Source of the DNA: Escherichia phage T5
DNA length: 64,000 bases
Sequence record: NC_005859.1
Direction: 5' to 3' (one strand)
This document shows, in pieces, positions 24,085 through 64,000 of the stretch (positions are counted from its first letter, which is position 1; each line of letters starts with the position of its first letter). Below the pieces are notes generated by a model. It saw only the letters and a program-made list of their open reading frames with translations, was not told the origin of the DNA and ran no database searches. The position numbers were made by a program, and so were the translations under genes.

Positions 24085-24116
24085 AAAATAAAGGGGCCTA
24101 ATGACCCCTCTTTTTT
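24085..24116. terminator. bidirectional terminator-like hairpin at convergent junction
   Basis: aggggcc..gacccct hairpin flanked by A-run on one side and T-run on the other; directly 3' of tail fibre gene. Confidence 0.55.
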
Positions 24117-27100: not shown

Positions 27101-28305
27101 GAGCTATAGGAAAGACCGTTACCGCCAAGACCGAAAGCGCCTACAAGCATAGCATTTTCAAGGCCCAAGTCTGCCTTAGTAGGCTTATTTACCTGGTCGT
27201 AAATCCTTGCGGCTAGGCTTTCAATAAATCCTGATGGTTGAGTATCTTGACTAACAAATCCTTCTGGAATGTATAATTCAGTCCTGCCAGTCTGTGCCAG
27301 TACTGCAACCCTTGTTTCTTTAATAAAGGCTCGCTGATAGCACCAGACTTCGAAATAGCCATCACCTTCTACAAGGCCGTAACGCAGTTGGTTATCCCAG
27401 GCAAGGTTTGGTGAACCGAGTCGGCGAACACTTAAAAATTTAGTTATATTTTCACTGGTTACCCCTCTTGCATCGTTAAGACCGCGAGCAGATATCTCTA
27501 CAAAGTCAATATTACCGTAACTTGAACCGTAGTTACCGCCATTTGTAATCATTAGCGTTAGGTGACAGCTTACTGCACCTGGATCGGTAAGTTTAGCTAT
27601 CTTGACGTAAACGCTATTGTTGTTTGTACCGACGGGCCAGTCGTATTGCGTTACTGGGCTTACGAGTTCACTTGCCATATCGAGATATTCTTTCGCCTTA
27701 TTCTCTGACGTTTTGGCATTGGTTTCGCTTGTTTTTGCTGCTGTCTCGCTTTTCTTTGCATTGGTTTCTGATGTTTTTGCTGCTGTGGCAGAGTTTGCAG
27801 CCGCTGTTTTTGATGCATCCGCCGCCTGAGCGCTATTACCAGCATTTGTTTCAGATGTTTTTGCGGCCCTCGCGGAATTTTCTGCCGCCGTTGCAAAGGA
27901 AGATGCGCTACTAGCACTTGATGCTGCGTTCGTTTCTGAAGTTTTTGCAGCATTTTTACTATTATTGGCGTTAGTCTCGGAAGTTTTTGCAGCTTTAGCA
28001 CTATTAGCAGAAGCAGTAGCAGAGGAGGCAGACTGAGTTGCAGATTGCTGAGAAGATGTTGCGGAAATTTCTGCCTCATTCTCAGAATCTTTGGCATTTA
28101 ACTCTGATTGCTTAGCATTAATTTCAGACTGCTTAGCTGCAGGGCCGGATGCTTTAGAAGACTCTATCGCAGAGGTTACGTCTGCAGCAGTAATAGAGCT
28201 AATGGAATTAGAAAGCACAACTGTATACTTAGGATATTTACTTGCAGTTATACTATTCTGGTCCATAGTGACCATTTGCTGTAGAATTATTTTAGTTATA
28301 GCCAT
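24115..28305 (-). CDS. ltf: L-shaped tail fibre protein (pb1-like) with C-terminal intramolecular chaperone domain
   Basis: 1396 aa, same length as T5 pb1; N-terminal AKTSETNA-type repeats; C-terminal ...AMSDPETEAAKAIAKEIGFWTWKE... chaperone/autoprotease-like segment. Confidence 0.85.
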   Translation of the reverse strand: MAITKIILQQMVTMDQNSITASKYPKYTVVLSNSISSITAADVTSAIESSKASGPAAKQSEINAKQSELNAKDSENEAEISATSSQQSATQSASSATASANSAKAAKTSETNANNSKNAAKTSETNAASSASSASSFATAAENSARAAKTSETNAGNSAQAADASKTAAANSATAAKTSETNAKKSETAAKTSETNAKTSENKAKEYLDMASELVSPVTQYDWPVGTNNNSVYVKIAKLTDPGAVSCHLTLMITNGGNYGSSYGNIDFVEISARGLNDARGVTSENITKFLSVRRLGSPNLAWDNQLRYGLVEGDGYFEVWCYQRAFIKETRVAVLAQTGRTELYIPEGFVSQDTQPSGFIESLAARIYDQVNKPTKADLGLENAMLVGAFGLGGNGLSYSSVQSNVDLINKLKANGGQYWRAARESGANVDINDHGSGFYSHCGDTHAAINVQYNTGIVKVLATTDRNLASDIVYANTLYGTANKPSKSDVGLGNVTNDAQVKKAGDVMSGDLDIRKETPSIRLKSTQGNAHLWFMNNDGGERGVIWSPPNNGSLGEIHIRAKTSDGTSTGDFIVRHDGRIEAKDAKISYKISSRTAEFSNDDTNTAATNLRVSGKQHTPIMLVRDSDSNVSVGFKLNNMNAKLLGIDIDGDLAFGENPDHKQNSKIVTRKMMDAGFSVAGLMDFTNGFAGPWEAKNISDQELDLNSLMIKKSDPGSIRVYQCVSAGGGNNITNKPSGIGGNFILYVESIRKVGDTDFTNRQRLFGTDLNREFTRYCSNGTWSAWRESVVSGMNQDVSVKSMSVSGRLSGNELSVGGAGVLNGNLGVGGGATSKMPSSDKGIVIGRGSIVREGGEGRLILSSSGGTDRLLQLRPAGATSLDNQVEISCTSASAGDTKISFGQGAAIRCNNAGSPIISAKAGQMIYFRPNGDGISEGQMILSPNGDLVVKGGVNSKEIDVTASQSLPLKETTATTGIGVNFIGDSATECSFGIENTAGGSAVFHNYTRGASNSVTKNNQLLGGYGSRPWLGSTYTEHSNAALHFLGAGDTSATNHGGWIRLLVTPKGKTISDRVPAFRLSDNGDLWLVPDGAMHSDLGLVRSIETLNAAVPRFNAPSIQDGRGLKIVAPQAPEIDLIAPRGSGASAPAIRAMWCDGSLADTTRYIGATQPGSTFYIGASGHDGEKFDSMRGSVAIKSAGGWGPTSTPTQVVLETCESGSISRLPRWGVDHNGTLMPMADNRYNLGWGSGRVKQVYAVNGTINTSDARLKNDVRAMSDPETEAAKAIAKEIGFWTWKEQADMNDIREHCGLTVQRAIEIMESFGLDPFKYGFICYDKWDEHTVVSEYGPANEDGTENPIYKTIPAGDHYSFRLEELNLFIAKGFEARLSAIEDKLGM
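27660..28100 (-). repeat. in-frame tandem coding repeats in tail fibre N-terminus
   Basis: reiterated gcattggtttc.gatgtttttgc.gctgt DNA units encoding AAKTSETNA-like peptide repeats. Confidence 0.7.
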
Positions 28306-46384: not shown

Positions 46385-47596
46385 TTAATCTCCCTCGGTG
46401 GAACCTTTAGGTCTACCACCTTCTTGACCAGATACACCTGTTGCAGAACCAGCGACGTTAGCAGGAATACGGATCTTATTCATCTGCTCATCATCTAAAG
46501 GCTCCAGGTTCAGCTCTGAACGAGCTTCGTTACCGGTTATAATACCATTATTAACCAATGAGGTTAAATGTTTAGCCTCTGCTTCTTTATCTGGTGTTAA
46601 TGCTGCGACTTCCTTAGTATTAGGAGTGATCTTATAACCAAAAAAGAAAGTAAGAGAACTAGTCAGTTTGTTCAGCATAGGAATGATAGTCATATAATAG
46701 AACAATTCGATGTTTGGTCGAATATTCGCATTATTACCACCATCAAGCAGTACTTGCGGAACTCCAAAGGCTAGACAAATAGATTTATTAAACCCTTCTA
46801 TGTCTTCCTTAAAGTCTAGATCTTTAAAAGAGGATATTTGGGAGTACGGTTTAGCTTTCATACCACCATCTAGAATCAGGACAGAGGACTGACCCGTACT
46901 AGGATTATAATCGAGTTGTAATTCTTCTTGTTTACGCTCACGCAATTTCTTGTTCAGGATTTCATCCGTCTCAAGAATAAGACCAATCACGGTTCCGTTA
47001 TCGAGGAATTTCTCTTTAAAGTTAAGCATCTTAGAACGCTTCTCAAGAGAATCAATAACAGTAGCAACACGAGATTGGCCAGAAATTTGAGAGTTTGTGC
47101 CACACACGTAACTGTTATCCTTTATAAAGATAATCTCATCTACGCGATAGTTTATCTGATTATTAAATATAAATTTTTTGATAAACTTATTGGCATCTGC
47201 CTCGACCTGCATAAGAGCGGCCGGGACATGGTAAAGCGATGTGCCATCCCAATAGATGTATGCACAACCTTCAAAAAGTAGGTCAGTGACTACAAGTCTA
47301 CGGAATGTGCTTATATCCATGAATGGATTAGGTCGTACATTTAAGAGAGTGTCTAGAGTCTTTGTTTTGACGCCATTAGCGTACGTAACAATATTATATT
47401 TATCTCCGACAGTATAAGAACACTCCGCCGCACTATCTATAACCATATTAGCAGTTCTATTGAGAATCTCAATTTTACTGTAGGCTTGTCCAGTGGTAAA
47501 AGGCTTACGGTTAGTGCGATGACTAACTGGTTCCATGTCTCTTATAATACGTTGACCCGGATTTAGCTTTTCAGTAATCCAGCTTTTAAAACCCAT
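46385..47596 (-). CDS. portal protein (pb7-like)
   Basis: 403 aa, same length as T5 pb7; between terminase and protease. Confidence 0.8.
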   Translation of the reverse strand: MGFKSWITEKLNPGQRIIRDMEPVSHRTNRKPFTTGQAYSKIEILNRTANMVIDSAAECSYTVGDKYNIVTYANGVKTKTLDTLLNVRPNPFMDISTFRRLVVTDLLFEGCAYIYWDGTSLYHVPAALMQVEADANKFIKKFIFNNQINYRVDEIIFIKDNSYVCGTNSQISGQSRVATVIDSLEKRSKMLNFKEKFLDNGTVIGLILETDEILNKKLRERKQEELQLDYNPSTGQSSVLILDGGMKAKPYSQISSFKDLDFKEDIEGFNKSICLAFGVPQVLLDGGNNANIRPNIELFYYMTIIPMLNKLTSSLTFFFGYKITPNTKEVAALTPDKEAEAKHLTSLVNNGIITGNEARSELNLEPLDDEQMNKIRIPANVAGSATGVSGQEGGRPKGSTEGD

Positions 47597-48048
47597 TATA
47601 AGAACCTTGCGAATCCTGATTTTGTTTCAGTCTTGACTTGTGTCTTTTCTTGAGGATTCTGTATTTTGTCTTTCTGCTTTTGAACCCATGCTTTCTGTTT
47701 ATTAGCAGAAAATAATGGAGGTTCTTTCGTGTAAACCTTATGTAATAATTGGTGATGGTGCTGGCACAATGTTACCACGTCCCTAACTAACTCATGCTCA
47801 TATTTCTTGTAGAATGCTTCCCTATTTGAAAGGACGATATTCTCATCAGTGAAATCCAGCTGGAGTTCTTTAGCAAATTTTTTTATTAGCTGAGATATAG
47901 TATGATAGTGATGAAGTTCTAGGTCTTCACTACTACCACATATAGCACAGCAACCATCCTTACTATACCTAGATTTTATACCATCCCTCATTATGGAAAT
48001 GGCATCACGTTTGTACTTAGTATTAGTGGCCATACTCCTCCAATCCAA
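47596..48048 (-). CDS. HNH endonuclease
   Basis: 150 aa; CxxC...HHYH...HHHQLLH zinc/HNH motifs. Confidence 0.7.
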   Translation of the reverse strand: MDWRSMATNTKYKRDAISIMRDGIKSRYSKDGCCAICGSSEDLELHHYHTISQLIKKFAKELQLDFTDENIVLSNREAFYKKYEHELVRDVVTLCQHHHQLLHKVYTKEPPLFSANKQKAWVQKQKDKIQNPQEKTQVKTETKSGFARFL

Positions 48049-48856
48049 AGCTATTTAGAAAGATTACTATATCCTCAGGAGCAACATTAAAAAATTCCGT
48101 GCTTCCTGTAAAATTAGAAAACCCACAGTTTTTATTATAATATTCTCTGTGAACTTCCTTTTCTAAATCTAAAGCAGTCTCTCTATCTGGCAGATGATAC
48201 ATGGTGAACAAGTACAGGTCAGAAAATCCAGATTCTCTTTTAACTTCATTCAACCGTTTCTCGGGATATAAGCTTATGCCTACTTTAGTACCGCTAGAGA
48301 AGGACATGATATAGAGGAATCCACCATTCTCCCACTTAAGAGAACAATAAGGACATCTCTTACCTTGAGTCAATCCATCTAAGGTAATGAAACAGTCATG
48401 CCCATTATTGCAGCGTAGATGTAGTTTTGTTTTAGCATTAGTATAGCTGCTTAACAGAGTATACCCTATATTAGATATTCTGTTACTAACTTCATCTAAC
48501 GATATTGTATTATTGGAGCAGTGTGGACAACCTCTCCTCATATGGAGTATAGAATGTGGTGTTGCTTCCCAAACGTGTGCTCTCTGGCATTTAAATACTG
48601 TTTTTGTACGTTGGTTTACATATTCACCGACAATTTGGATTCCACGATCAGCTAATCTAATATTTATATCTTTTATTGTTAGCTTTTGTCGACCCATAGA
48701 ATCTCCTACACCCATGTAGAGCATTAATTTTTCTTGTTTACGTTCTATTATGGGAGAAGTTCTCCCGATCAATGAATATAGTATACATAATCGTATCGAA
48801 TTTGTAAAGGGGATTTTAAAATACAGGAATGGGATACCAACTGAGTAGTATCCCAT
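48023..48856 (-). CDS. putative homing endonuclease-like protein (two zinc-ribbon modules, T5orf172/GIY-YIG-like C-terminus)
   Basis: 277 aa; KCQRAHVW...GCPHCS and RCNNGH...RCPYCS modules; paralog of 38027..38839. Confidence 0.55.
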   Translation of the reverse strand: MGYYSVGIPFLYFKIPFTNSIRLCILYSLIGRTSPIIERKQEKLMLYMGVGDSMGRQKLTIKDINIRLADRGIQIVGEYVNQRTKTVFKCQRAHVWEATPHSILHMRRGCPHCSNNTISLDEVSNRISNIGYTLLSSYTNAKTKLHLRCNNGHDCFITLDGLTQGKRCPYCSLKWENGGFLYIMSFSSGTKVGISLYPEKRLNEVKRESGFSDLYLFTMYHLPDRETALDLEKEVHREYYNKNCGFSNFTGSTEFFNVAPEDIVIFLNSFGLEEYGH

Positions 48857-48867
48857 CCTATACTTAT

Positions 48868-50184
48868 TTATTTACCACGGGAAATAGAGTAAATTCCATA
48901 GCGGAGCGCATCACAAAGGTGAGAGTTAGCATCATGACGTGGTTTTTCACGTGATAATTTCTCTTCGCCTTCTTGGAAGTCCCACTTATAGTTCTGCAAT
49001 GCATGAATTAAGGAGGAACATGAAGCATCTACAATAATCTTGCCCTGCTGGAATAGCGCTTGCAGGCATGCTAGACCATCTAGGACAGACTTTTTAGCTG
49101 GAGCAGATGCAATTTCATGCTCATATGCTAAATCCTGGCGGAACTGAGCTGCTGCAGAGTCAACAAAAATACGATCAACTTTATAACGATCTATACAGTG
49201 CTGAATATAAGCAGCATGCTGAGCTGTAGTTTTCTCCGCCTGCTGGTACTCTTCTAATACATAGTAAGTATCCGTATCGTAATGATATTTAATAGTAAGA
49301 ACTGCTGTAGGATCACGATAACCAACGTCAATACCAAGCAACGTTTCGAATGCTTCATCATCTTTAAAGAAGTGACGCATACCTTTGAGGTCTTTAACAT
49401 GATCGATAGCATTAAAGGTATCAAAGATCTGGCCCTCGAATACAGAGAAGTCAGCCTCGTATTCTTGGCGGAAGTAGTTTTTACTAACTGTACGGCGTGC
49501 TTCCTCAATATCATTCAAGTCAGCACGTGGGTTATCACGATATGTACCATGAATAGATACCCAGTTAGGCAACGTATCATCAAATCCGTAGGCGTAAAAC
49601 TCTTTAAACCAGTTACCTCCACGAGGGGTGGAAATAAATAGAGCCTTAGAATTAGGTTTATCCAGAGTAGGACGCAGCTGAACCCTGAAAGCATCACCAC
49701 CCACATCGGAAATTGCCGCTTCGTCAAAGATGATAAAATCATATGAACGTCCAACTGCGGAGTCAGCCTGCGCCGCAGAAGCTAGTTTGAAGAGCGAGCC
49801 GTTTGCCAGCTCAATCTCTTTATCTTTGGCGTTTTCACGTTCGGTTTGTAGGCCATACTTCTTGATAAGACCACGAATCTGTGACCAACCAATGTTAGCC
49901 AGTGAGTAGTTAGGGGCAACTACTAGTACCTTCACATTAGGTTCCAGCAATTTTAGGAACCCAAGTGTGTATGCGATGAAGGATTTGCCTACACGACGTG
50001 ACACACACGCTGTTACAAAACGATGTCTAGGGTCCTCTAGGGCATTAATAATCGCTATTTGAGGACCATTAGGTGTAATACCTTCTTGTGCTAGTATTCC
50101 TGAAACAGGTAGACGAAAGAAACGTTTATCTATCCCGAAATCGATAACATCTACTGTATTAACGTAGGGTCTTGATACTTCCAT
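48868..50184 (-). CDS. terminase large subunit
   Basis: 438 aa; Walker A CVSRRVGKS; Walker B IIFDEAA; C-terminal RNaseH-like nuclease region. Confidence 0.85.
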   Translation of the reverse strand: MEVSRPYVNTVDVIDFGIDKRFFRLPVSGILAQEGITPNGPQIAIINALEDPRHRFVTACVSRRVGKSFIAYTLGFLKLLEPNVKVLVVAPNYSLANIGWSQIRGLIKKYGLQTERENAKDKEIELANGSLFKLASAAQADSAVGRSYDFIIFDEAAISDVGGDAFRVQLRPTLDKPNSKALFISTPRGGNWFKEFYAYGFDDTLPNWVSIHGTYRDNPRADLNDIEEARRTVSKNYFRQEYEADFSVFEGQIFDTFNAIDHVKDLKGMRHFFKDDEAFETLLGIDVGYRDPTAVLTIKYHYDTDTYYVLEEYQQAEKTTAQHAAYIQHCIDRYKVDRIFVDSAAAQFRQDLAYEHEIASAPAKKSVLDGLACLQALFQQGKIIVDASCSSLIHALQNYKWDFQEGEEKLSREKPRHDANSHLCDALRYGIYSISRGK

Positions 50185-50666
50185 TACTTCTTACCTCCAG
50201 TAGCTAGGGAAGTAATTAAGTCCATGTAGTTTTGATCCCCAGCTCCAGCAATAATATTATTCTGGATGTTGGTCTGGTTAGCTGGAGTACGGGCTGCTGC
50301 CTTCACTTTCTCCAGTTCTACCATCATTTTCATTTCTTCCATTTTCATTTTATGTGCTTTCCAGAGAATATCCATAATATCTTGGTCAGAACCCATGCCA
50401 GTTTCTTCCAGTTCCTCTAGTTTACGCTTGATAACTTCATCCAGAACACCAAATAAACGATCTCTGTTACGGAAACCACTCTCCATAAAAATATCATTTA
50501 AGTAGTTCTTAACTTCACTACGATTCATAATATCTCGAAAAGCAATTTCGGACATTCCAAGACTACGTGCGGCAGAAGGCACGTCGCTGCCACACTGTAA
50601 ATAAGCTTCAATCACATCCATCCCTTCAGGGGACATAAGATCTGGTACTAATACATCATTTGCCAT
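50184..50666 (-). CDS. putative terminase small subunit
   Basis: 160-aa ORF coupled upstream of terminase large subunit. Confidence 0.5.
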
Positions 50667-53740: not shown

Positions 53741-53850
53741 TTGGGAAATCTCGAAATTTCATAAGATTACACATGAAGGTGTGTCCACTGCCTCCGGCGA
53801 AAATACTTAGTCTGCTAACCGCCACCCCCGTTACTATTACCATGCTAACT

Positions 53851-53887
53851 GTTTCACCCTGCAACCATTTTAATTGCAGGGTGAAAC
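53851..53887. other. perfect 14-bp-stem hairpin at late / pre-early junction
   Basis: gtttcaccctgcaa - ccattttaa - ttgcagggtgaaac; no adjacent U-tract. Confidence 0.6.
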
Positions 53888-53904
53888 AATTTCAACTTTA
53901 ATTA

Positions 53905-54639
53905 TTACGCAACTTTTAATTTCTCAATATATTGTTGCGGGCTGCAACTATATTCTGCGCGTTCTTCTTCGGTCATACCTTCCCAACATAATTGCAGGCG
54001 GTCGGCTAGGAACTGATAATCATTATCATCCTCAAGAGATTCATCAATAAAGGTTTCACCTATCAATGTCACGCCGATTGATAGAATATCATTAACGGCT
54101 TGTGCGTCCAGCGTTTTAAATCCGTATGACGCTGCCGCTGATAGCACGCCTTTATGATCATCAATCATTGTAAAATCAGCGTTCGGATATAATTGTTTGA
54201 ATAGCCCAAAATAGTAACTTTTATAAACTGCGTCTTTGCTGTGGTATATCTCGCTAACTTTATCAGCCTCAAAATATTTGTGTAGTGTATCGCGGGAAAA
54301 TACACGGATATTACTATCACCACGACCGCGCAACCCTTGTTTACGCAAATAATAATAGTCCGACTTGCTCATTAGTCGAGCGGTGCAAATAATGTTTAAA
54401 GTATTTGCGTCATTCATGCACTGGCGCATATATGTAACAAGGGGCAATAGTGTATCTTGCATTATTAAATCATGTTTGCAGGCTTCATTTTTATACTTAT
54501 TTAAATCTAAATTGCCCTCGCTATCAAAGCAAGGCGCTACACGATGAAACGAATTAATGATAGTGCCGTCCAGATCCCAAATCATGACGCGGGAAATATG
54601 CGGGAAATTACGGGTAATATTCGTTTTAACTTGATTCAT
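53905..54639 (-). CDS. dmp: 5'-deoxyribonucleotidase (HAD family), Dmp-like
   Basis: 244 aa; HAD motif I IWDLDGT; terminal-repeat-like position next to A1. Confidence 0.75.
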   Translation of the reverse strand: MNQVKTNITRNFPHISRVMIWDLDGTIINSFHRVAPCFDSEGNLDLNKYKNEACKHDLIMQDTLLPLVTYMRQCMNDANTLNIICTARLMSKSDYYYLRKQGLRGRGDSNIRVFSRDTLHKYFEADKVSEIYHSKDAVYKSYYFGLFKQLYPNADFTMIDDHKGVLSAAASYGFKTLDAQAVNDILSIGVTLIGETFIDESLEDDNDYQFLADRLQLCWEGMTEEERAEYSCSPQQYIEKLKVA

Positions 54640-54719
54640 TTTGTTACGTTCTCCATTTGAGGGATTAGATTAATTCAGCATTACCCGCTATTAAATAGCG
54701 GGTAATAATAAATTAACTA

Positions 54720-55115
54720 TTAAAGGCCATACGCTAGCGCATCAGCGATAAAACTAACATCCTCGCCCGATACGCTGGAACGAATGCCAGCGCATGTATA
54801 CACCTTTGCGCTCATTAGCTGATCATCAAGGCAAGCGGGGCAAGGTGCGACTACTGCGAAAGCTAAACCGGATTTTACCGCGTCAATAATGATTGTTTCC
54901 TGTTTCATAGTGTCAACATAAACACCTTTTGCTTTAATATGGCTTGTTAGTTTGCCCTGCATATATGCAAACGTTGTAACTTGCATCGCGTCATTGAAAT
55001 CTAATAGCTCATCAATAACGTGACCGGCCTCGACGTGATAACGCTGACCATTAGAATAAACCAGAACAATAGAAGACTGAGCGCGATCGAATGGGATACG
55101 GTTAGATTTAGCCAT
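54720..55115 (-). CDS. hypothetical pre-early protein
   Basis: 131-aa ORF between dmp and A1. Confidence 0.55.
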   Translation of the reverse strand: MAKSNRIPFDRAQSSIVLVYSNGQRYHVEAGHVIDELLDFNDAMQVTTFAYMQGKLTSHIKAKGVYVDTMKQETIIIDAVKSGLAFAVVAPCPACLDDQLMSAKVYTCAGIRSSVSGEDVSFIADALAYGL

Positions 55116-55151
55116 GTTTATAACTCCAATTAGTTTAATAAGGGATTTAAT

Positions 55152-55430
55152 TTATTTGCTAGCTTCAAGACTTACAACAAAAGCGAGATTTGTTTCTTTC
55201 CATACGTCAGGAATATCATTTTCCTGTAAATGGTCTTTCGCTTCATACTCATTTTCAAAAGAATAAAAATCGCCGGACTCAATTATATAAATATGCCCGT
55301 TTAGTTCATTTTGATAAATATAACAATTATTATCTTTTAAATTGCGGTATACAGTACCATGCCGTAAAACATCAAGCGACCATGTATCAGCGGTGTTTTT
55401 CATGCTGGGAAGATTAATTTTAATAGCCAT
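55152..55430 (-). CDS. hypothetical pre-early protein
   Basis: 92-aa ORF. Confidence 0.5.
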   Translation of the reverse strand: MAIKINLPSMKNTADTWSLDVLRHGTVYRNLKDNNCYIYQNELNGHIYIIESGDFYSFENEYEAKDHLQENDIPDVWKETNLAFVVSLEASK

Positions 55431-55486
55431 TTAATTTAGCTCCTGTAATAGCGGCTATATCTCAAGCCGCTAGGGGAATAATTTAA

Positions 55487-57157
55487 TTACGCAAAGAATT
55501 TACCATTCTTAAAGTCAATCAAAGTGCGTTGACCGTTTGCATAGGTAATAATATGCGTTTGAGTCCAGCTAGACGCGCCAACGTTGTAACCCATGTCCAG
55601 ACTACCAGTCACGCCAGCGGTATAAACGCCGCCGTAAATGCTGGCGGTGTGGGTGTGTCCGGTGTTTAATTTGCCCAATTTCTTAAACTGTTTCGGGTTG
55701 CCACGGCTCCCGTTAATGCCGTTGTGACCGTGTACGCCGCATTCAATGCCTGCAATCTTGAAAGATTGGTCAGTGGTCAGGAAAATGGCGTTAAATTCAC
55801 AGCCTGCAACCTTGCGCAGCGCATAATCAAGCACGTTAAAAGTATCGTCTTTTTCTGCAATAGCTCCATAAATCGCAGCATTCAGGCGGTGATATAGTTC
55901 CGCGTTTGCTGGGTCGTCTTTAATGTTAGCATTACGATCATCTAACCAGCGGGATAGCGCCAGATCATGATTAGATTCAACAATGATTGTTTGAGAAAAA
56001 TCACGCTCCATTGATTCCAGTACGCGCCCCGTATCGATAAGATCATCTAATACCTTATCACGTCCGGCGGCATATTGTTTCGCTAGGAATACGCCAGATG
56101 CGCGGTTGTGATGGTTGCGTGATGTAAAATCATGCACGTCGTGTACAAACTGATATTTTGGTTTAAGAATATCAACAAGCCCGTAGGTGTCACCATGCCC
56201 CCAAGACGCAGCGGCGCACTCCTCATCTAATTTTTCAGCGTGAATGTCGCCATATTGTAAACCTAAAACGTGCCCCGTTGTTTCATAACATCCGGCAGGA
56301 GTGGCGCAAGTATTCAAATCATAAAACACGCCGCTCTCGTCCATCGTTTCAAGCTGGCGCACAAAAAACTCACCGTCCTCGTCAAACTCAACAATAAGCG
56401 CACCGAAGTTATGCAGCGCCTCGGCCTTTTGTCCTGCTTTCTGCTGGATGTAATTTTTTAGCGTTGCCGTTCCGGTTGAATACATACGGCGCACAATTTC
56501 ACCTTTTAAAGCTGGCACGCTTTCGGCGGTGATTTTAGCCGCTCCAATTGCTAGACCTTCAAGATTCAGCGCGGTTGCAGTTTCAGCGAATCCAGAAAGC
56601 GGATAATCTGCGGTGGGTAAAACGTTAATTTCAGCCATGAAAGCAAATCGGCGATTATTTAAAAACACGTTTTTATTGCAGATATATTTGTCAAATGCGG
56701 AATCGTATCTGATACCGTCGGCGCCCTCGCCATTTTGAAAACCGTTTTTGTTATAGATAAACTTGCTAACCAGCAAATCAGCGCCGATAAATTGGGCGTA
56801 TTGTTCAAGTGAGGCTAAAAAGTTTTTATGCGGGAACGTATTATTCTGAATCGATGTAATAATAAAGCGTTTACCTTGTTTTACTTCCCATTGCTCAACC
56901 GTGCTAGAAACAATCCCCGCCGCTTCTGGGCGCTCATCGTTTTTAATGGCTTTTGCTACTTTCGCCGCTTTCGGTTTCGCTGGTTTATTTGCTTCCAGCC
57001 AGTCACAAATTGCGGTAGAGTGTTTTGTTGTATCGTAAACCATTTTTGAAATATCGTCGCAAACTTCCAATTTAGTAGCGCGCAGACGTTTACCGTAGAA
57101 ATTAAAGTCAGCGGCCATTTTCAGGATAACGGTTTGTTTTTCTGCGGAAATAACCAT
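55487..57157 (-). CDS. A1: A1-like pre-early protein with metallophosphoesterase domain
   Basis: 556 aa, same length as T5 A1; calcineurin-like motifs GDIH, GDTYG, ESNHD, GHNG, HTHT in C-terminal half. Confidence 0.75.
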   Translation of the reverse strand: MVISAEKQTVILKMAADFNFYGKRLRATKLEVCDDISKMVYDTTKHSTAICDWLEANKPAKPKAAKVAKAIKNDERPEAAGIVSSTVEQWEVKQGKRFIITSIQNNTFPHKNFLASLEQYAQFIGADLLVSKFIYNKNGFQNGEGADGIRYDSAFDKYICNKNVFLNNRRFAFMAEINVLPTADYPLSGFAETATALNLEGLAIGAAKITAESVPALKGEIVRRMYSTGTATLKNYIQQKAGQKAEALHNFGALIVEFDEDGEFFVRQLETMDESGVFYDLNTCATPAGCYETTGHVLGLQYGDIHAEKLDEECAAASWGHGDTYGLVDILKPKYQFVHDVHDFTSRNHHNRASGVFLAKQYAAGRDKVLDDLIDTGRVLESMERDFSQTIIVESNHDLALSRWLDDRNANIKDDPANAELYHRLNAAIYGAIAEKDDTFNVLDYALRKVAGCEFNAIFLTTDQSFKIAGIECGVHGHNGINGSRGNPKQFKKLGKLNTGHTHTASIYGGVYTAGVTGSLDMGYNVGASSWTQTHIITYANGQRTLIDFKNGKFFA

Positions 57158-57253
57158 AATAATAAAACTCCATTAAAGGGATTAAAAAACGTTTGTTATT
57201 GGCAATATTGCCAAATATAACGCCTTGAATAATAGGCGTTATAATTTGCAACA

Positions 57254-57451
57254 TTAATTTAAAGGCATAAGGCTAGAACTAACACCACAAGCAACGGCGG
57301 CAATAAAACAAATCAGACCTAAACGCTTTGCTAACTTAGATTTACGTTTAAAATAATACGAATCTAAATCATTTTGAAAATAAGCGAACAATAACGAGGC
57401 CGCCATAATAAACAAGCCTAGAATGAGGGATTCAGTAGGGTAAAAGATCAT
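57254..57451 (-). CDS. small membrane protein
   Basis: 65 aa with two hydrophobic helices. Confidence 0.45.
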   Translation of the reverse strand: MIFYPTESLILGLFIMAASLLFAYFQNDLDSYYFKRKSKLAKRLGLICFIAAVACGVSSSLMPLN

Positions 57452-57507
57452 TTTAAAACTCCAGTCAAAGGGAAATTATAGTGGGGAATATTCCCCACTA
57501 ATTAAAT

Positions 57508-57915
57508 TTATTCGCCTGCGGCTTGTTTTACTTCATCGGCAACGCCTAACAGTTGCGCCACGGCGTCCAGCGTTTCCAATTTTGCACTTTCCAGTGATGC
57601 CAGATCGTCAGCGTCTTTGATAATACCGGAATCGATGGCATGTTTTGCAATCACACGCACGTAGTGCGCTTTGCGGATAGAACTGCCGCCGCCAACCTTG
57701 CGAGGTTTATCGCTTTTCTGATACGCTTTCGCGCTGGTCAATTTTGAGCGAACAGACACGGGAGAAGCCGCGCCAACTGCTTTTGCAATCTCTTTTAAAC
57801 CGTCGCTATTTGCGAAATCTAAACCGTTTTCATTAATTAACTGCTGGTACATGGAAACAGCTTTCTGAGTGTTTTCTTCATTCCAAGCGAATTTTGCGGT
57901 TTTAGCGTTAGTCAT
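57508..57915 (-). CDS. A2: A2-like pre-early DNA-binding protein
   Basis: 135-aa ORF immediately after A1 in transcription order; size and position match T5 A2. Confidence 0.65.
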   Translation of the reverse strand: MTNAKTAKFAWNEENTQKAVSMYQQLINENGLDFANSDGLKEIAKAVGAASPVSVRSKLTSAKAYQKSDKPRKVGGGSSIRKAHYVRVIAKHAIDSGIIKDADDLASLESAKLETLDAVAQLLGVADEVKQAAGE

Positions 57916-58010
57916 GATGTAACTCCTGTTTATTTAATTTAAGGGATAAGATTAACATAATGTTAATCGTTATATCCCCCGAACTACTGGGGGATATAAA
58001 AGTAACACTA

Positions 58011-58262
58011 TTACGCTACGGCTTCCCATTTTTCGTTACGCTGGGCAACCTTTACAACGTCGCCGGATTTAACCCGAACGTTGTAAACAGTTTTTCCGTT
58101 GTTACTCCGTTCCGTTTCAGCGTATACCGCATCAATTACATCAAACGGCATAAGCGCCGCGCCTTTAATGCGTTCGGTTTTTCCGGTTACCTCATCCGTT
58201 TTAGTAACGAAAGGGATAAAAACGGATTGACCAATTTTTGGCGCAGTAGTAACGTTTTGCAT
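58011..58262 (-). CDS. hypothetical protein
   Basis: 83-aa ORF; GC-richer codon usage like the A1/A2 block. Confidence 0.5.
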   Translation of the reverse strand: MQNVTTAPKIGQSVFIPFVTKTDEVTGKTERIKGAALMPFDVIDAVYAETERSNNGKTVYNVRVKSGDVVKVAQRNEKWEAVA

Positions 58263-58495
58263 AATATAAACTCCAGTTTATTAAGGGGGATTGTTCCGCA
58301 TTACCTGCTGTAAAAGTAGTGGCAGGTAATAAGCAACAATCCGCTCGCCAATATAATCAATTTAAAGAACTCCACTCAGGCCGCTATATCCCAGTTAGGG
58401 GGCGGGACACATTATGGTAAGTGCCGACCGTCATATTTTATCAAGTTATCGCTCTCATCGAACTGGGTACATCTTAAAGCCTATCGGCTAGGGTG

Positions 58496-58699
58496 TCAAA
58501 CTATTTTTTGCAGTTTTTTATGATTTTCTTTCAAGTCAATCATAATGTTTCGCCAGATCATTTCCAGACCTTGCTGGCGGCCTTTCTTGTACTGCCTAAA
58601 TCGATATTTTACCGATTGCTGGGCTATTGTCAACAATTTTTTAGTAGTACCATCTAATTTTTTAGCTGGTTTACCAGTGATCAATAAAGTTTGTTTCAT
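58496..58699 (-). CDS. hypothetical basic small protein
   Basis: 67-aa Lys/Arg-rich ORF in an otherwise non-coding stretch. Confidence 0.3.
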   Translation of the reverse strand: MKQTLLITGKPAKKLDGTTKKLLTIAQQSVKYRFRQYKKGRQQGLEMIWRNIMIDLKENHKKLQKIV

Positions 58700-59191
58700 A
58701 TCGTCGATTCCTTATAATATATAAGTTTACCGCCGATAGACTTTAAGATGTACCCAATTTTTAAAGAGCGTGGCGGTAAACTTCCCGCCGTGTAGTTCGT
58801 CATTGCCGCCCTACGAGATAAATAATAGGGGATACCCAAAAATGGCGCAACCTTATTTTTGTAAAGAAACGTAAAGAAGGCAACACGTCCGGCGCTCACC
58901 TAAGTTTAAAGGAAACGGGCGCGCGAATACCATAAAACCTAGCAGGTTGGCAAGTAATTTTTTCCTTTATATTTGCCTTGCCCTAGTTGACAAATCTTAG
59001 AAAGCTCGTGGTGACGATAAACGGGTTATCCCCTTATGATGGGATGCCTGAAAAATTTACCGCGTCAGAAAGCGTTTTAGGCGGCTTATTTTCGATTTAA
59101 CAAATATTTAACAAAAGCAAAATTGAAAAATAGTTGGAAAAGATATTGACTTTTAAAAATCAAGACTAAACGAGTTATTTTATAAAATTAA

Positions 59192-59710
59192 TTAATTGAC
59201 AATTCCAAATTCAGCTTTTTTAGTTTCTACCCATAATAATAACTCTTGTAAATCATAACCTGATTTACTAACACTTTTGTTACTAGTAGGATCTTTAACT
59301 ATAGCGCGCAAATAGTTTCTTCCGTTATTATCAACTCTAGAACCATTATAATAGATATGCTTAGGCAACTTATTAGCACGCTTATAATCTTTCTTGTTAT
59401 TCATATTCTGCTTATGGTCTACTAAGCGAAGATTATTAATGTTATTATTAGCACGGTTACGATCATTATGATCGATTGTTAGATTGCTATCAATCTCACC
59501 ATTAAATAATACCCATATTATTCTATGCACTGCGTATTGTTCGCCTGCTAACTTTACTCGATAGTAACCTGTGTTACTATAATGCCCTGCAATATCACCC
59601 ACCTTACTATTACCTTTCTGTACTTTCCATCTTAGAAATGATGGGGATGTTTCATCATAATAAAAGTTATCATTAGCAAGCGAATAATCTATATCTTTAA
59701 ATAGACCCAT
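59192..59710 (-). CDS. HNH homing endonuclease with AP2-like domain
   Basis: 172 aa; AVHRIIW...IDHNDRNRANNNINNLR...HKQN HNH motif; third member of the family at 4556 and 11864. Confidence 0.7.
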   Translation of the reverse strand: MGLFKDIDYSLANDNFYYDETSPSFLRWKVQKGNSKVGDIAGHYSNTGYYRVKLAGEQYAVHRIIWVLFNGEIDSNLTIDHNDRNRANNNINNLRLVDHKQNMNNKKDYKRANKLPKHIYYNGSRVDNNGRNYLRAIVKDPTSNKSVSKSGYDLQELLLWVETKKAEFGIVN

Positions 59711-59876
59711 TGTTATAGTTTCCTTATGTTATTAATTTAATCTCTATTATATTATATCAAAACCATTAGCAAACTACCTAATGAGTTTTTCAGGTTTAAT
59801 TAGCAGACTCATAATCACTTTAAAATCCTATTAGCCAACTAACTATATTTTGTTATATAATAACTGCATAAATTAG

Positions 59877-60010
59877 TTAGTGAGAAACACTATCATTTAA
59901 GTTATCCACAGCCTTATACATTTTGTAAATTAACTTGACACAATAGGAAGGCTTTATAGCACTTTTACACAGACTTATCCACAGGTTATTCCACTGTATA
60001 AATATACAGG
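59877..60010. repeat. left arm of ~130-bp imperfect inverted repeat, with DnaA boxes and 16-bp palindrome
   Basis: TTATCCACA at 59903-59911 and 59975-59983; palindrome ctgtataaatatacag 59994-60009; reverse complement aligns by eye with 63192-63320. Confidence 0.65.
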
Positions 60011-60275
60011 GTAAATGGAAAACATATTATAATGATGCCCAAAATAAGCGGCCTAAAACGCTTTCTAACGAGCAAAACGCTATAGGGTAATATTAAAGTA
60101 AAGCCTCAACGCGTCGCCCTGGTGGCTTCGCCGTGTTTTGCTCTTTACTATACCGCTGCGCGGTTAGCATAAAACTAGGCGCTAGGCAAGGAAAATAAAA
60201 AGGTAAAATAATATTTGCCTATGCTAGAAAATTACCTTTATCATTCACTCACCGATTAACGAGGGAGGCCAACAA

Positions 60276-61286
60276 ATGCGGCTATATAAACCAGATAACG
60301 CAACCGTCTTAAAGGGCGCCTTGCGCAACCTGCTGGATGGTAGCAGGACAACCAGCATTAAACATTTTATTAACAAGGCTGAAACTATTCACCAAAACTT
60401 TTTTAATGATTATGATGCCTATGATATGGATAGTTTTCTACCCCTATATAAGCAGGGGGCAACGATTATCTTATATAATCGTGATTGCCATATCTTTACG
60501 GGCAGGGGAGCGGGGCCGGATACTGATTTTATTGTTGCGCAGGGTAATAATATCGTTGCGTATCATAGCAATTCAGGCCGTCAATCATTTAATATAAATA
60601 ATTTTGAGCTTGTTGGGCTTGAATTAATAAACGGACTTTCTAGCCTTGAGGGATTTTTAGATGTTATCTGGAAGTATTTATCTGCTGGATGGCATAGACC
60701 TGATAGTGATGGATCTCAATATACGGCTGTAATGGCTTTTGATGGCGACGGTAATTTTTTATTACCATCGGAATTATATCCGTATGTATATAATGAGCTA
60801 GTACAAGAAGCGGGTTTTATTTTCTGGAAAGATGAGAATCAGATCATTGACAACACGGAAAAACATGCTGTAAATTCTAACACTCAAAGCGTTAACACTC
60901 AAATCACTGAAAACAAAGGAAAAAATGCCATGACCAAGATCGCTAATATCGTTGCCGCTAATAAATCCGCCGTTGTAAATGCTGCAAAACTGGAAGCGGG
61001 CAAAATTGCATTAACTCAAATCACGAAAGTAGCGGCTAAAAAAGCACCATTTATGATTAAAGGTTATATTGATACGCCTATTGGTCGGGTAGTTATTGCT
61101 AACCTGCTGAGCGTAGCGGTTGACCAGTACGCCCCTAGCAACCAAAAGGCGAAAGCGGTAGCGGGTGCAGCTATGGAAGCGGCTATGCTAGAAATGGTGC
61201 AAAGTTTTAACATCGCTGAAATGATTGATGAAATGGTGAAAGGTATTGATATTTCTACTTTTACCGTTAACACCGAAAGCGAGTAA
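60276..61286 (+). CDS. hypothetical protein (336 aa), first gene of inverted-repeat-bounded cassette
   Basis: RBS gagggagg; mixed alpha/beta N-terminal domain, Ala-rich helical C-terminus. Confidence 0.65.
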   Translation: MRLYKPDNATVLKGALRNLLDGSRTTSIKHFINKAETIHQNFFNDYDAYDMDSFLPLYKQGATIILYNRDCHIFTGRGAGPDTDFIVAQGNNIVAYHSNSGRQSFNINNFELVGLELINGLSSLEGFLDVIWKYLSAGWHRPDSDGSQYTAVMAFDGDGNFLLPSELYPYVYNELVQEAGFIFWKDENQIIDNTEKHAVNSNTQSVNTQITENKGKNAMTKIANIVAANKSAVVNAAKLEAGKIALTQITKVAAKKAPFMIKGYIDTPIGRVVIANLLSVAVDQYAPSNQKAKAVAGAAMEAAMLEMVQSFNIAEMIDEMVKGIDISTFTVNTESE

Positions 61287-61314
61287 TAATTAACCTAATG
61301 TAAAGTTTTGTAAA

Positions 61315-61340
61315 GGTCGCCATAATCGGCGGCCTTTTTT
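61315..61340 (+). terminator. possible terminator/attenuator
   Basis: short GC stem (tcgcc/ggcgg) followed by CCTTTTTTG. Confidence 0.35.
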
Positions 61341-61404
61341 GTTATAATGCCTTTACACCGTTTGAGGACGGTTGAAAATTTTCCCAAAATTTTGGAGGCT
61401 TAAA

Positions 61405-61635
61405 ATGGTTGCTTATTCTTCTTCTGACGCTCTTTTCACTGGAAAAGGCTGGGTATCAAATCGCTGGATCATTCAAGAAATGGTGCAGGAGTTCGGCATT
61501 GCTAAAACTTACACTACCATTCAGGCGCTTTATGATAATGATCAAATCGATCAGCAAACGGCGGGCTTTTTGCTGGATACCCTGAAAGCGGAACACTGTA
61601 CTAAAAAACAAGCCGCCAAAATTGTTTTAATGTAA
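61405..61635 (+). CDS. hypothetical protein
   Basis: 76 aa from ATG with RBS ggagg 6 nt upstream (track start 61372 is TTG). Confidence 0.55.
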   Translation: MVAYSSSDALFTGKGWVSNRWIIQEMVQEFGIAKTYTTIQALYDNDQIDQQTAGFLLDTLKAEHCTKKQAAKIVLM

Positions 61636-61684
61636 TTAATAACGGGGCGTTACTTTCGCCCCACTAACTAGGGGAGTATTACAA

Positions 61685-61849
61685 ATGGTTATTTTTCGAG
61701 CTATTCTGGCAGGTATCTTGGGCGCTATTCTGACCCTTTTTGCTACCGCTTACGGTATTCAAGATTCTTATTGTGGTTTAGTAAATACTAAACCTATGGT
61801 TATTATTGGCGCGGGTATCGCTGTATTTTCTTATCTGCTGGGCTGCATG
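61685..61849 (+). CDS. small membrane protein (54 aa)
   Basis: hand-translated MVIFRAILAGILGAILTLFATAYG...; RBS gggag; not in ORF track. Confidence 0.35.
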
Positions 61850-61866
61850 AATAAAGGAGAATAAAA

Positions 61867-62079
61867 ATGATCCGCAACGTTTCTCTTGCTCGTTCAAAGG
61901 GTTTTAAGCTGGTGGATGTTAACACATTCGAGCGGGAAGATTGTAAAATCGAATATGTAGCACGTAATAAAAACGCCTTTCGTGTTACAGAAAAGAAATT
62001 TGATAAGCGCGGCAACGTGATAGCTGAAACGGTTAAACATTTTGCCACCTTTTACGCGGCTTTTCGTGGAGTGTTATAA
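61867..62079 (+). CDS. hypothetical protein
   Basis: 70-aa ORF, RBS aaaggaga. Confidence 0.55.
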   Translation: MIRNVSLARSKGFKLVDVNTFEREDCKIEYVARNKNAFRVTEKKFDKRGNVIAETVKHFATFYAAFRGVL

Positions 62080-62080
62080 A

Positions 62081-62425
62081 ATGGTAATTTATGAAGGCAA
62101 TCGCTTTGTTGCTATTTGCCGACCGGGATTATTAGCAAACTACTTAAATCAGGTGTCACCTGAATATAAAGGCGTCATTAATATTTATGAGGGCAAGGCG
62201 CATTATAAGATTAATGCGGTCGTTGCCCGTGAATTAGCATTTCAATTTTTGACTTTCGCATCTTGTGATATTCAGGTCATGGGTGAAGCGTTAATTGCAG
62301 AAAATGAAGATGATTTTATTAATATCTTCCGCAAGGTATACACCGAGCGCCTGATAATGAAAGGCGCATATATTCAGTCAACTGCGGAAAGTATTGAAAC
62401 AGCTTTCAGAAAGGTGGCGCAATGA
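62081..62425 (+). CDS. hypothetical protein
   Basis: 114 aa from ATG 62081 (RBS ggag), 1 nt after upstream stop. Confidence 0.55.
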   Translation: MVIYEGNRFVAICRPGLLANYLNQVSPEYKGVINIYEGKAHYKINAVVARELAFQFLTFASCDIQVMGEALIAENEDDFINIFRKVYTERLIMKGAYIQSTAESIETAFRKVAQ

Positions 62426-62440
62426 AGCTATATATTTTCG

Positions 62441-62719
62441 TTGGTAATGTTGAGGCTGCGAATGATTCCGCTGGTGGCGATAACGTTCGCCACTATTGGC
62501 AAAAATATATTTACTAGGGTTATTATGATTACACTGATTTGCGTTAAAGCCGAAGGCGACACGATAGCGCGAGAAGGGCAAAAATATAAAGCCCAAAAAG
62601 ATCAATTACTCAAAACAATTGAGCGTTACAAAATACCCGATCTCAAGTATTCCGTAGTAGGACGCGATGGGATTCTAAGGGCGACACTTGAGAACGCTAT
62701 CTTTGAGATAGTCAACTAA
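62441..62719 (+). CDS. hypothetical protein (start uncertain)
   Basis: track ORF begins with TTG; internal ATG at 62525 would give 64 aa. Confidence 0.35.
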   Translation: MVMLRLRMIPLVAITFATIGKNIFTRVIMITLICVKAEGDTIAREGQKYKAQKDQLLKTIERYKIPDLKYSVVGRDGILRATLENAIFEIVN

Positions 62720-62734
62720 TAACGGGGCGTTATT

Positions 62735-62938
62735 ATGAGCAATAAAATTATTGTGACCAAAACTACCACAATGGTAGACGTTTTTTATGTGCCCGATACG
62801 CCGGAGAATCGGGGAGCGGTCGAGCGGGGCGAGTATGATAGCGTTATTTATGATGCCGATGGTTATTATCAGCATTTGGTCGATTCCTACGGGGAAGAGG
62901 AGAAGATCACGCATCGATTACCCGAGGGGGATTTATGA
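62735..62938 (+). CDS. hypothetical acidic small protein
   Basis: 67-aa ORF. Confidence 0.5.
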   Translation: MSNKIIVTKTTTMVDVFYVPDTPENRGAVERGEYDSVIYDADGYYQHLVDSYGEEEKITHRLPEGDL

Positions 62939-63048
62939 AACGATGGTTTAATCACTGGTATAAACGGTTTTTAGTACGGCATCGCAAGTCTAGACAGCAA
63001 GATGATTGGCGGGAAATGGCAAAGCGTAACAATTGCCCACTTCTCTGA
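62935..63048 (+). CDS. small basic protein (37 aa)
   Basis: hand-translated MKRWFNHWYKRFLVRHRKSRQQDDWREMAKRNNCPLL; ATGA overlap with upstream stop; followed by terminator. Confidence 0.35.
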   Translation: MKRWFNHWYKRFLVRHRKSRQQDDWREMAKRNNCPLL

Positions 63049-63055
63049 TAACCGA

Positions 63056-63077
63056 CGGGGATCAGCTCCCCGTTTTT
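63056..63077 (+). terminator. rho-independent terminator closing the plus-strand cassette
   Basis: cgggga-tcagc-tccccg hairpin followed by TTTTT. Confidence 0.7.
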
Positions 63078-63191
63078 CACGCCTCCAGTTAAATCCCCCT
63101 TTGTTTTAGTATCCCCATCAAAATTAAACGCGTTAGAATGCGATCTAGGACGTTTTAGGCATATATTAGAATTATTCACTGCGTAGGAATA

Positions 63192-63320
63192 CTGTATAAA
63201 TATACAGTAGGATAACCTGGGGATAAGTCTGTTGATAACGCTTCAAAATGGCTAGGATTTTGTCAAGGCGAATCGTGCTGTTGATAAGTCTGTGGATAAC
63301 TTAAATAACAGTGTTTCTCA
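63192..63320. repeat. right arm of inverted repeat, with DnaA-box cluster and 16-bp palindrome
   Basis: palindrome ctgtataaatatacag 63192-63207; DnaA-box-like 9-mers (rc TTATCCACA at 63291-63299; variants at 63209-63239 and 63279-63287); tail cttaaataacagtgtttctcac mirrors the left arm. Confidence 0.65.
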
Positions 63321-63323
63321 CTT

Positions 63324-63480
63324 CCGTTTTTAAATACGAATCATTATCATTCGTATTCCGCTTTTTAAATGAGAATCATTCCGCTTTTTAAATGAGAATC
63401 ATTTCACTTCCTGAATAGTTCTCATTCCCTTTCTTAAATGAGAATCATTATCATTTGCATTTCACTTTTTAAATGAGATT
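63324..63480. repeat. array of ~22-bp direct repeats (CCGCTTTTTAAATGAGAATCATT)
   Basis: two perfect tandem copies 63358-63403 plus three degenerate copies; each holds the small dyad AATGA-n3-TCATT. Confidence 0.75.
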
Positions 63481-63509
63481 GATTCTCATTATCATTCGCA
63501 TTCAGGCGA

Positions 63510-63527
63510 GCAGGGCAATTGCCCTGC
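63510..63527. other. perfect 18-bp palindrome
   Basis: gcagggcaattgccctgc followed by gcttttg. Confidence 0.7.
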
Positions 63528-63533
63528 GCTTTT

Positions 63534-63756
63534 GTGCAAATCCGACATTTGCCCCCATGGATTACGCGTGGGCGTGTATGTGCAAATCCGACAATTTTTG
63601 GTAGTGTGCGAATCCGACCCGAAAAATTTTTATAGTGTGCAAATCCGACAATGAATTTTCCCAAAAACTCCAGCAATCACGAACTGCGTTCGAATCCTGT
63701 GGAATTAGCTAGAGTATGTGCAAATCCGACATGTGTTGAGATGTGCGAATCCGACA
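63534..63756. repeat. iteron-like array: six copies of 14-bp GTGC(A/G)AATCCGAC(A/C)
   Basis: copies at 63534, 63580, 63606, 63646, 63718, 63743 with irregular 25-72 bp spacing, all same orientation, non-coding. Confidence 0.8.
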
Positions 63757-63892
63757 AGATTTTTGTGACTTCGATGGGAGGGTGTGTGATTGTATGGGTT
63801 TGAGGGGAAGATGAGAGAGCGAGAGAAATTTGGGAGGCTAGAAGGATATGGGCGCAGGATTGGTGCGGAGCACCTGATTTGCGGGGATTTTG

Positions 63893-63936
63893 GGGAAGAG
63901 TTGAGATAATTTGGGAAGATTTGAGATAGGTGCAGA
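63893..63936. repeat. purine-rich tandem repeat (TTTGGGGAAGAGTTGAGATA-like, 2 copies)
   Basis: within a strongly G+A-skewed plus-strand tract 63770-63940. Confidence 0.5.
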
Positions 63937-64000
63937 AAAAGTAAAATTTTATTAGCTAAAGGGGGCAAAATAGCTTGACAAGTGAAAATTTCTGTGGCTC

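Follow-up and report, generated by a model that had tools for sequence, protein, structure and literature searches.

A polar array of conserved 13-bp repeats at the injection-stop locus of bacteriophage T5: candidate protein-binding sites at the boundary between first-step and second-step DNA transfer

The DNA of bacteriophage T5 enters its host in two steps, and the system closest to the element considered here, an array of six same-orientation short repeats in a 64,000-nucleotide stretch of T5 DNA (sequence record NC_005859.1; hereafter the window), is the T5 injection-stop locus itself. The sequence is the same: the repeats are those known as direct repeat D (DRD) in T5 Repeat Region 3, an ~1.2-kb noncoding block at the end of the terminal repeat farthest from dmp, and DRD copies 1 to 6 are already annotated; the window holds the right-repeat copy. 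In the T5 literature, the arrest of transfer at 8% has been mapped to no single element, and the first-step endpoint has been placed at ~7.9%, which is the left edge of the array. Repeat Region 3 and its DRD locus are treated by Davison 2020 (bioRxiv 10.1101/866236), who credits earlier descriptions to 1987 and 2005, stresses the conservation of the region, gives DRD no role, and names as stop-signal candidates an upstream IRD'-spacer-IRC' element with DnaA boxes, together with the DRE repeats. The six DRD repeats are thus known repeats of the T5 injection-stop region, to which none of the papers that we covered assigns a function, and their observation in the window is real but not new. We did not find the 11-bp coupling of the array to a nick motif, its conservation in Vibrio phages, or the floating position of the repeat boundary in the published DRD descriptions that we covered, which did not include Davison's 2015 review. 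From these features we tentatively propose, as a reading that may well be right but in which our confidence stays low, that the array is a polar set of candidate sites for a sequence-specific protein, possibly A2, at the boundary between first-step and second-step transfer.

Several better-known arrangements resemble the locus in part. Terminase sites (P1 pac hexamers, SPP1 pacL and pacR, lambda cosB R sites), also consist of several short sites flanking a genome-end cut, but the geometry of DRD to the cut is not conserved and the T5 sites lie 86 to 470 bp from it. Plasmid origins (P1 oriR, pSC101, RK2 oriV) share with the T5 tract same-orientation repeats beside DnaA boxes and an A+T-rich block, whereas T5 has no adjacent initiator gene, has 13-bp units, has its origins mapped elsewhere, and shows no plasmid similarity. 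Conjugative oriT and the geminivirus origin may be compared in that, like T5, they combine a nick beside a GC-rich hairpin with direct repeats that follow, but the T5 nick motif also stands alone at other nicks and no relaxase or Rep is known here. The strict one-strand orientation of DRD along a path of directional DNA movement may be likened to that of FtsK KOPS and SpoIIIE SRS, although the DRD sites sit together at one locus and are not distributed over the genome, and no T5 second-step translocase is known.

The window corresponds to ~57.75 to 121.75 kb of T5; over its last kilobase it shares 100% identity with AY692264 and 99.8% with AY587007. Alignment to the left end of AY587007 showed that the right terminal repeat occupies window positions 53782 to 64000 (10,219 bp) and that the T5 genome physically ends on its right side at position 64000. 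The array in the window is the right-terminal-repeat copy, with DRD copy 6 ending 244 bp short of the genome's right end; this copy takes no part in first-step transfer, the left repeat being the end that is injected first. The dmp gene lies ~0.1 to 0.9 kb into the terminal repeat, counted from its start at 53782, and an estimate made from the letters of the window alone (the sequence-only reading), which had put the repeats ~9.5 kb from dmp, was roughly right. That reading had also suggested that the repeats might mark the injection-stop locus of the terminal repeat, and they do lie inside the stretch labeled "injection stop signal" in AY692264 (9140-10144), beside the 7.9% nick. The locus was therefore correctly named, but the repeats themselves are no more than a possible stop signal, and Davison 2020 favors other elements. 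In AY587007, "palindrome J" and "major single-stranded nick 1, 7.9%" precede the direct repeat D copies, of which copies 7 to 9 lie just past the left repeat, copy 10 lies in ORF019, and copies 11 and 12 lie in D13/exo2. The copies in the window are as follows.

63534..63547, + strand: DRD copy 1, GTGCAAATCCGACA; exact match, annotated in AY587007
63580..63593, + strand: DRD copy 2, GTGCAAATCCGACA; exact match, annotated in AY587007
63606..63619, + strand: DRD copy 3, GTGCGAATCCGACC; exact match, annotated in AY587007
63637..63650, + strand: DRD copy 4, GTGCAAATCCGACA; exact match, annotated in AY587007
63718..63731, + strand: DRD copy 5, GTGCAAATCCGACA; exact match, annotated in AY587007
63743..63756, + strand: DRD copy 6, GTGCGAATCCGACA; exact match, annotated in AY587007
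21186..21214, + strand: tandem DRD pair, copies 11 and 12 (starts 21186 and 21201), inside the D13/exo2 coding sequence

The pattern GTGCRAATCCGACM has six exact matches at 63534-63756, all on the + strand, as originally noticed, and these coincide in position and sequence with the AY587007 features "direct repeat D copy 1-6." Their start-to-start spacings are 46, 26, 31, 81, and 25 bp, and a repeat finder gave the same family. When up to two mismatches were allowed, the window held 8 matches versus 0.70 expected from 100 dinucleotide-preserving shuffles of the window, none of which (0/100) reached 8. In the whole reconstructed T5 genome we counted 18 copies at the same tolerance, distributed 18/0 on the +/- strands, with six per terminal repeat, three beyond the left repeat (86 to 270 bp past its end; AY587007 10226-10410), one in ORF019, and two in D13. 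The description of the tract as gene free also held: no coding sequence is annotated over it in either AY587007 or AY692264, and its only open reading frames (ORFs) are short mechanical ones of at most 87 amino acids with TTG or ATG starts. A promoter scan of the tract found promoter-like sites at the background level, with no excess, and an Rfam scan of it found no RNA family. As regards helical phasing, the units are repeatedly 17 or 27 bp apart (Rayleigh p ~0.007), a value to be read with the fact that tandem copies are not independent. The left part of the repeat, GTGCRAATCC, is one base off the tRNA T-arm consensus GTTCRAATCC, and of the three-mismatch DRD matches elsewhere in T5, four fall in the tRNA region (AY587007 29191, 33509, 33883, and 41360); the resemblance is probably a coincidence.

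The evidence that the unit itself matters comes from comparison of T5 with seven further phages and with 33 T5-like IMG/VR loci. Among close relatives, conservation of the units (0.92) exceeded that of the spacers (0.86), but the whole 1.2-kb block is conserved and the contrast is uninformative, so divergent genera were needed. Across these, the unit proved to be a 13-bp asymmetric motif, GTGCRAAWCCGAY (G-T-G-C-R-A-A-W-C-C-G-A-Y), present in 8 to 12 copies per array and nearly always on one strand. A profile built from 59 copies in six phages of five genera carried 1.0 to 2.0 bits at each of the 13 positions and ~0 bits in the flanks; the search pattern somewhat inflates this profile, although the contrast with the flanks is still clear. 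In six phages, the +/- strand counts were 10/0, 10/0, 11/0, 10/1, 12/1, and 8/2, and the 33 IMG/VR loci have the array in one orientation with nearly the same spacing. Pectobacterium phage My1 and Klebsiella phage IME260 have 10 to 12 units at different spacing, with flanks that are only 54 to 59% identical and essentially unalignable. The array of Vibrio cholerae phage phi 3 comprises 12 units of GTGCAAAACCGAY, and that of Vibrio phage Skimmer, whose record is inverted relative to T5, comprises eight or nine, read as GTCGGATTTGCACC. The Skimmer A1 protein is ~31% identical to that of T5, and the unit is kept in Vibrio phages in which A1 is merely 31 to 35% identical. In D333-type Vibrio phages the array is polar and its units have drifted in their right half, giving GTGCGAAACCTAT or GTGCGAATTCAAY, and a Proteus phage has a single degenerate unit. 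A search for distant relatives anchored on ORF018 returned only close relatives and IME260. The repeat was present in every lineage examined, in the Proteus phage as one degenerate unit only, and the absence from T5-like genomes that would have told against the sequence-only reading was not seen. A conserved unit between uninformative flanks behaves like a protein recognition site, with selection preserving the unit itself, and this family-wide 13-bp conservation fits the suggestion, made when the repeats were first noticed, of a multimeric protein-binding site.

The tandem pair in D13, which encodes VQILQVQIRQ and lies 363 bp from the annotated major nick 4, is kept in Markadamsvirinae. Copy 12 is intact in 27 of 28 close relatives and copy 11 drifts; there are few synonymous sites in this segment, and both copies are absent from the D13 genes of the My1 group. 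A function of the pair at the DNA level is rather unlikely, and the D13 copies are probably not essential.

In the direction of DNA entry, the array lies downstream of a LexA-type palindrome and a DnaA-box module and starts directly after the nick motif CCTGCGC, and this order (LexA-type palindrome, DnaA boxes, nick motif, then array) is fixed. The elements immediately before copy 1 are the following.

63510..63527, + strand: "palindrome J," a GC-rich, terminator-like hairpin, GCAGGGCAATTGCCCTGC, that overlaps the nick motif
63522..63529, - strand: nick-site consensus CCCTGCGC of major nick 1, annotated between 63529 and 63530 (7.9% in the left repeat, 99.6% in the right)

DRD copy 1 begins 4 bp after the end of the nick motif. 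In T5, the start of CCTGCGC is exactly 11 bp ahead of that of copy 1 (window 63523-63534), and the same distance to the first unit was found in BF23, IME260, Skimmer, and the Proteus phage; phi 3 has CCCGCGC 9 bp before its first unit, and the My1 array is without a GCGC motif before it. This junction of nick motif and unit is conserved across subfamilies. All four annotated major nicks carry CCCTGCGC or CCCGCGC. The DRD unit itself is without either form; the sole junction with the consensus is the one before copy 1. DRD was ruled out as the determinant of nicking, as nicks 2 to 4 have CCCTGCGC or CCCGCGC without DRD alongside.

It has also to be considered that the array could position or stimulate the phage nicking enzyme and so secure efficient interruption at 7.9 and 99.6%. 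The spacing of -11 in five lineages and of -9 in phi 3 would suit such a role, as would a second GCGC-then-unit junction in phi 3 and D333, the distance of the D13 pair from nick 4, the old T5 record M62847, in which the small-terminase ORF bears the label "sciB: putative" over its first 21 codons, and BF23, which annotates a nicking endonuclease in its packaging module. The abbreviation sci stands for single-chain interruption. However, nicks 2 and 3 share CCCTGCGC with no DRD within hundreds of base pairs, nick 4 has none adjacent, and the My1 array has no GCGC motif ahead of it. Nickless T5 mutants are viable, and given this, nicking alone poorly explains the strong family-wide conservation of 8 to 12 units. 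We consider a nick-targeting role very unlikely. A 150-amino-acid HNH-like ORF (window 47596-48048, - strand) between the portal and large-terminase genes matches the BF23 nicking endonuclease by position, and nicking and packaging genes are neighbors in the T5 window.

The small-terminase gene of the window provides the candidate binder for a different proposal, in which the units are recognition sites of the pac or cosB kind for the small terminase and mark the right-end cut and the start of packaging.

50184..50666, - strand: small terminase subunit (PHROG 3802), a rival candidate binder by inference only

To see how the array is placed relative to the cut, we used the six genomes with annotated or PhageTerm-derived termini. 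The numbers of units inside and outside the repeat were 6 and 3 in T5, 6 and 3 in BF23, 6 and 4 in My1, 5 and 6 in IME260, and 0 and 8 in Skimmer; phi 3 has 10 units inside, 1 spanning the boundary, and 1 outside. In all six, the boundary lies within ~500 bp of a unit, and the packaging proposal accounts directly for a boundary inside or beside the array in every such genome. It would likewise account for the distance from copy 6 to the terminus, which is 244 bp in T5 and 245 bp in BF23 (by PhageTerm termini), and for the other repeat boundary (window 53782), where we found no DRD-type repeats, as initiation from one end predicts. The presence of a small-terminase gene and the general likeness of cut-flanking sites to P1 pac and SPP1 pacL/pacR point the same way. 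However, relative to copy 1 the boundary falls at -53, +255, +367, +466, or +497 bp, so that the cut floats from -53 to +497 bp while the array stays fixed to the nick motif and the DnaA/LexA-type module; Skimmer has no copy inside its packaged right end; and the last 240 bp before the T5 terminus are strongly conserved but free of DRD. Packaging would, moreover, have to start from the right end, a direction presumed from the left end being the first to be injected. Since the order of modules is invariant and the cut floats, we rank a role at the first-step/second-step boundary above one in terminus cutting, and we infer that the array belongs to the control region of two-step transfer rather than to a terminus-cutting site. 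The packaging proposal, which we regard as unlikely, stays alive because the array is constantly close to the repeat boundary.

Other short sequences were seen at the termini. The edge of the Skimmer terminal repeat has three tandem 15-bp palindromic units, TCMCTATATTAGTGA, with two tandem CATTAGCATGACCTA-like units just outside; these edge repeats differ from DRD and are placed at the cut itself. In T5, the 5' strand ends are TGTCCAC at the left boundary (53782-53788) and GAGCCAC at the right end (bottom strand, 63994-64000), and the junction of the left repeat with unique DNA reads GATCCAC at the same position; the short CCAC common to all three could be chance.

Upstream of the array, the following modules resemble sites for host proteins.

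63190..63209, no strand assigned: "palindrome D," TACTGTATAAATATACAGTA; 19/20 bases agree with the SOS-box consensus of LexA, TACTGTATATATATACAGTA (0.02 such matches expected)
63230..63299, + strand: DnaA-box cluster; reverse complements TGTTGATAA at 63230 and 63279 and TGTGGATAA at 63291 (from the sequence and Davison 2020)
63320..63503, + strand: DRC/DRE repeat block, TTTTTAAATGAGAATCATT..., A+T-rich, with Fur-box-like matches of 15 to 16/19 at 63434, 63440, and 63475

Palindrome D is kept in eight phages; it lies upstream of the DnaA boxes in T5, BF23, IME260, My1, phi 3, and Skimmer and has diverged in D333. Relative to the first unit, the palindrome ACTGTATAWATATACAGT is found at -270 to -550 and the DnaA boxes are found at -195 to -524 across the phages. 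The same CTGTATAAATATACAG also occurs in Repeat Region 2, in the inverted copy (window 59994-60009). Davison 2020 makes no mention of LexA, and searching the literature gave nothing on this point. For the Fur consensus GATAATGATAATCATTATC, matches of at least 15/19 in the 64-kb window comprise only six starts (versus 0.51 expected from a block shuffle) at four places, all of them inside the terminal repeat: 54009-54033, 57956-57974, 63434-63458, and 63475-63493, the last two within the DRC/DRE repeats that immediately precede the array. The T5 receptor, FhuA, is iron regulated.

With DnaA boxes, an A+T-rich repeated block, and then same-orientation short repeats, the tract has the layout expected if the units were iterons for an initiator, as in a plasmid origin, and an origin-like element had been offered as an alternative when the repeats were first noticed. 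This conflicts with the central T5 origins cited in Davison 2020: by electron microscopy the origins lie near the genome center, and replication functions are not expressed in the first-step phase (bioRxiv 10.1101/866236). In addition, the genes annotated to the left and right of the tract in T5, BF23, My1, and IME260 include none for an initiator, no plasmid with similar DNA was found, and the 13-bp unit is shorter than typical iterons of 17 to 22 bp. An origin is, in our view, extremely unlikely.

The same neighborhood bears on a host-factor explanation, according to which the units are sites for a gammaproteobacterial DNA-binding protein, either DnaA at weak boxes or another factor that helps to anchor or arrest the entering DNA. 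The motif is nearly unchanged among Escherichia, Klebsiella, Pectobacterium, and Vibrio phages with phage proteins that are 31 to 66% identical, and the neighboring elements match host consensus sites (DnaA boxes, the SOS box at 19/20, and Fur-like sites at 15 to 16/19). The T5 unit includes TGTGCAAAT, an 8/9 match to the reverse complement of the DnaA box TTWTNCACA, in the orientation of the upstream boxes. Against the box consensus, however, the match is 8/9 in T5 (aTTTGCACA) and falls to 7/9 in the many My1, phi 3, and Skimmer copies that start with A or G before GTGC, and the information in the unit runs 4 to 5 bp beyond the box to span 13 bp, including a CCGAY that the 9-bp DnaA box does not need. 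The spacings of 13 to 90 bp are unlike those of the low-affinity DnaA arrays of oriC, and the drift of the right half of the unit in D333-type phages looks more like coevolution with a phage protein. No host regulator is known to have this consensus, and the unit fits none of the known consensus sequences for CRP, Fis, IHF, PurR, CytR, FadR, NtrC, the XerC arm, the mar box, sigma-54, or sigma-28. A host factor as the reader of the array is distinctly unlikely.

If the array is instead read by a phage protein, as we propose, the pre-early protein A2 would be the foremost candidate.

57508..57915, - strand: gene A2, encoding a pre-early DNA-binding protein needed for second-step transfer; a candidate binder by inference only

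A2 is an essential DNA-binding protein in second-step transfer whose mechanism and target are unknown. A structural model (mean predicted local distance difference test score [pLDDT], 75.7) has two three-helix domains joined by a linker, and conservation among five aligned lineages is highest in the third helix of the N-terminal domain, S51-x3-VR-x-KL. The conservation of A2 is compatible with its reading a family-wide motif and proves nothing. The model of the small terminase (pLDDT, 58.6) was too poor to use, and Pfam and PDB sequence searches with A2 and the small terminase gave nothing significant.

We envisage that first-step DNA would enter up to about the nick and the array, so that the array would be the first second-step DNA to be presented. 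A protein made during the pause could then load on successive same-orientation sites and help to hold or pull the rest of the genome in, A2, acting with A1, being the most plausible loading protein. The right-repeat copies would owe their presence solely to the accident that the terminal repeat takes in part of the array. A T5 mutant without 13 pre-early genes is viable, and from the genes listed as deleted it should keep the noncoding tract and carry a much shorter first-step DNA; its viability therefore argues for a sequence-defined rather than a distance-defined signal. Labedan and colleagues reportedly found in the 1970s that second-step DNA is still taken up after the capsids are sheared off, which implies an active, protein-dependent import step.

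A number of observations weigh against this proposal. The published stop-signal candidates are the upstream inverted repeats with DnaA boxes, and DRE, not DRD. The pairing of DRD with any protein is a prediction. A Foldseek search with the A2 model gave no significant match and only weak matches of the helix-turn-helix type (best E = 0.45), and A2 is not singled out by conservation, as A2 and the small terminase are about equally conserved and both track phylogeny. Not every relative has a long array of the exact motif, as the single unit of the Proteus phage and the drift in D333 show. The extra copies in D13 and ORF019 are unexplained by the model, and a location always within ~500 bp of the repeat boundary is explained only indirectly by a pure transfer model.

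Elsewhere in the window, G+C content rises to 0.46 to 0.47 at 24001-28000, versus 0.36 to 0.42 in the rest, and the sign of the GC skew flips over the same interval, which is where rightward early genes give way to leftward late genes. An ORF of 277 amino acids (window 48023-48856, - strand), flanked by the large-terminase gene on one side and the HNH-like ORF on the other, encodes T5orf172/MUG113, CapR, and treble-clef zinc-finger domains, and its product looks like a homing-type endonuclease; BF23 has no gene annotated at this position.

How T5 halts the entry of its DNA at 8% and restarts it has gone unexplained for more than 50 years. The region can now be dissected into testable modules: a LexA-type box, DnaA boxes, Fur-like boxes, a nick motif at 11 bp, and a polar array of 13-bp units. 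We have argued that the array probably goes with the transfer boundary and not with the terminase cut, and the dissection offers concrete probes and point mutations for binding studies and phage engineering. A more specific version, possible but doubtful at present, is that the DRD array and nick 1 form the cis-acting start site of second-step transfer, with the upstream LexA-type, DnaA, and Fur-like sites letting abundant host proteins join in the pause. If that were true, the stop/restart signal of T5 would combine host-factor sites with a phage-factor array, and these parts could be tested one by one.

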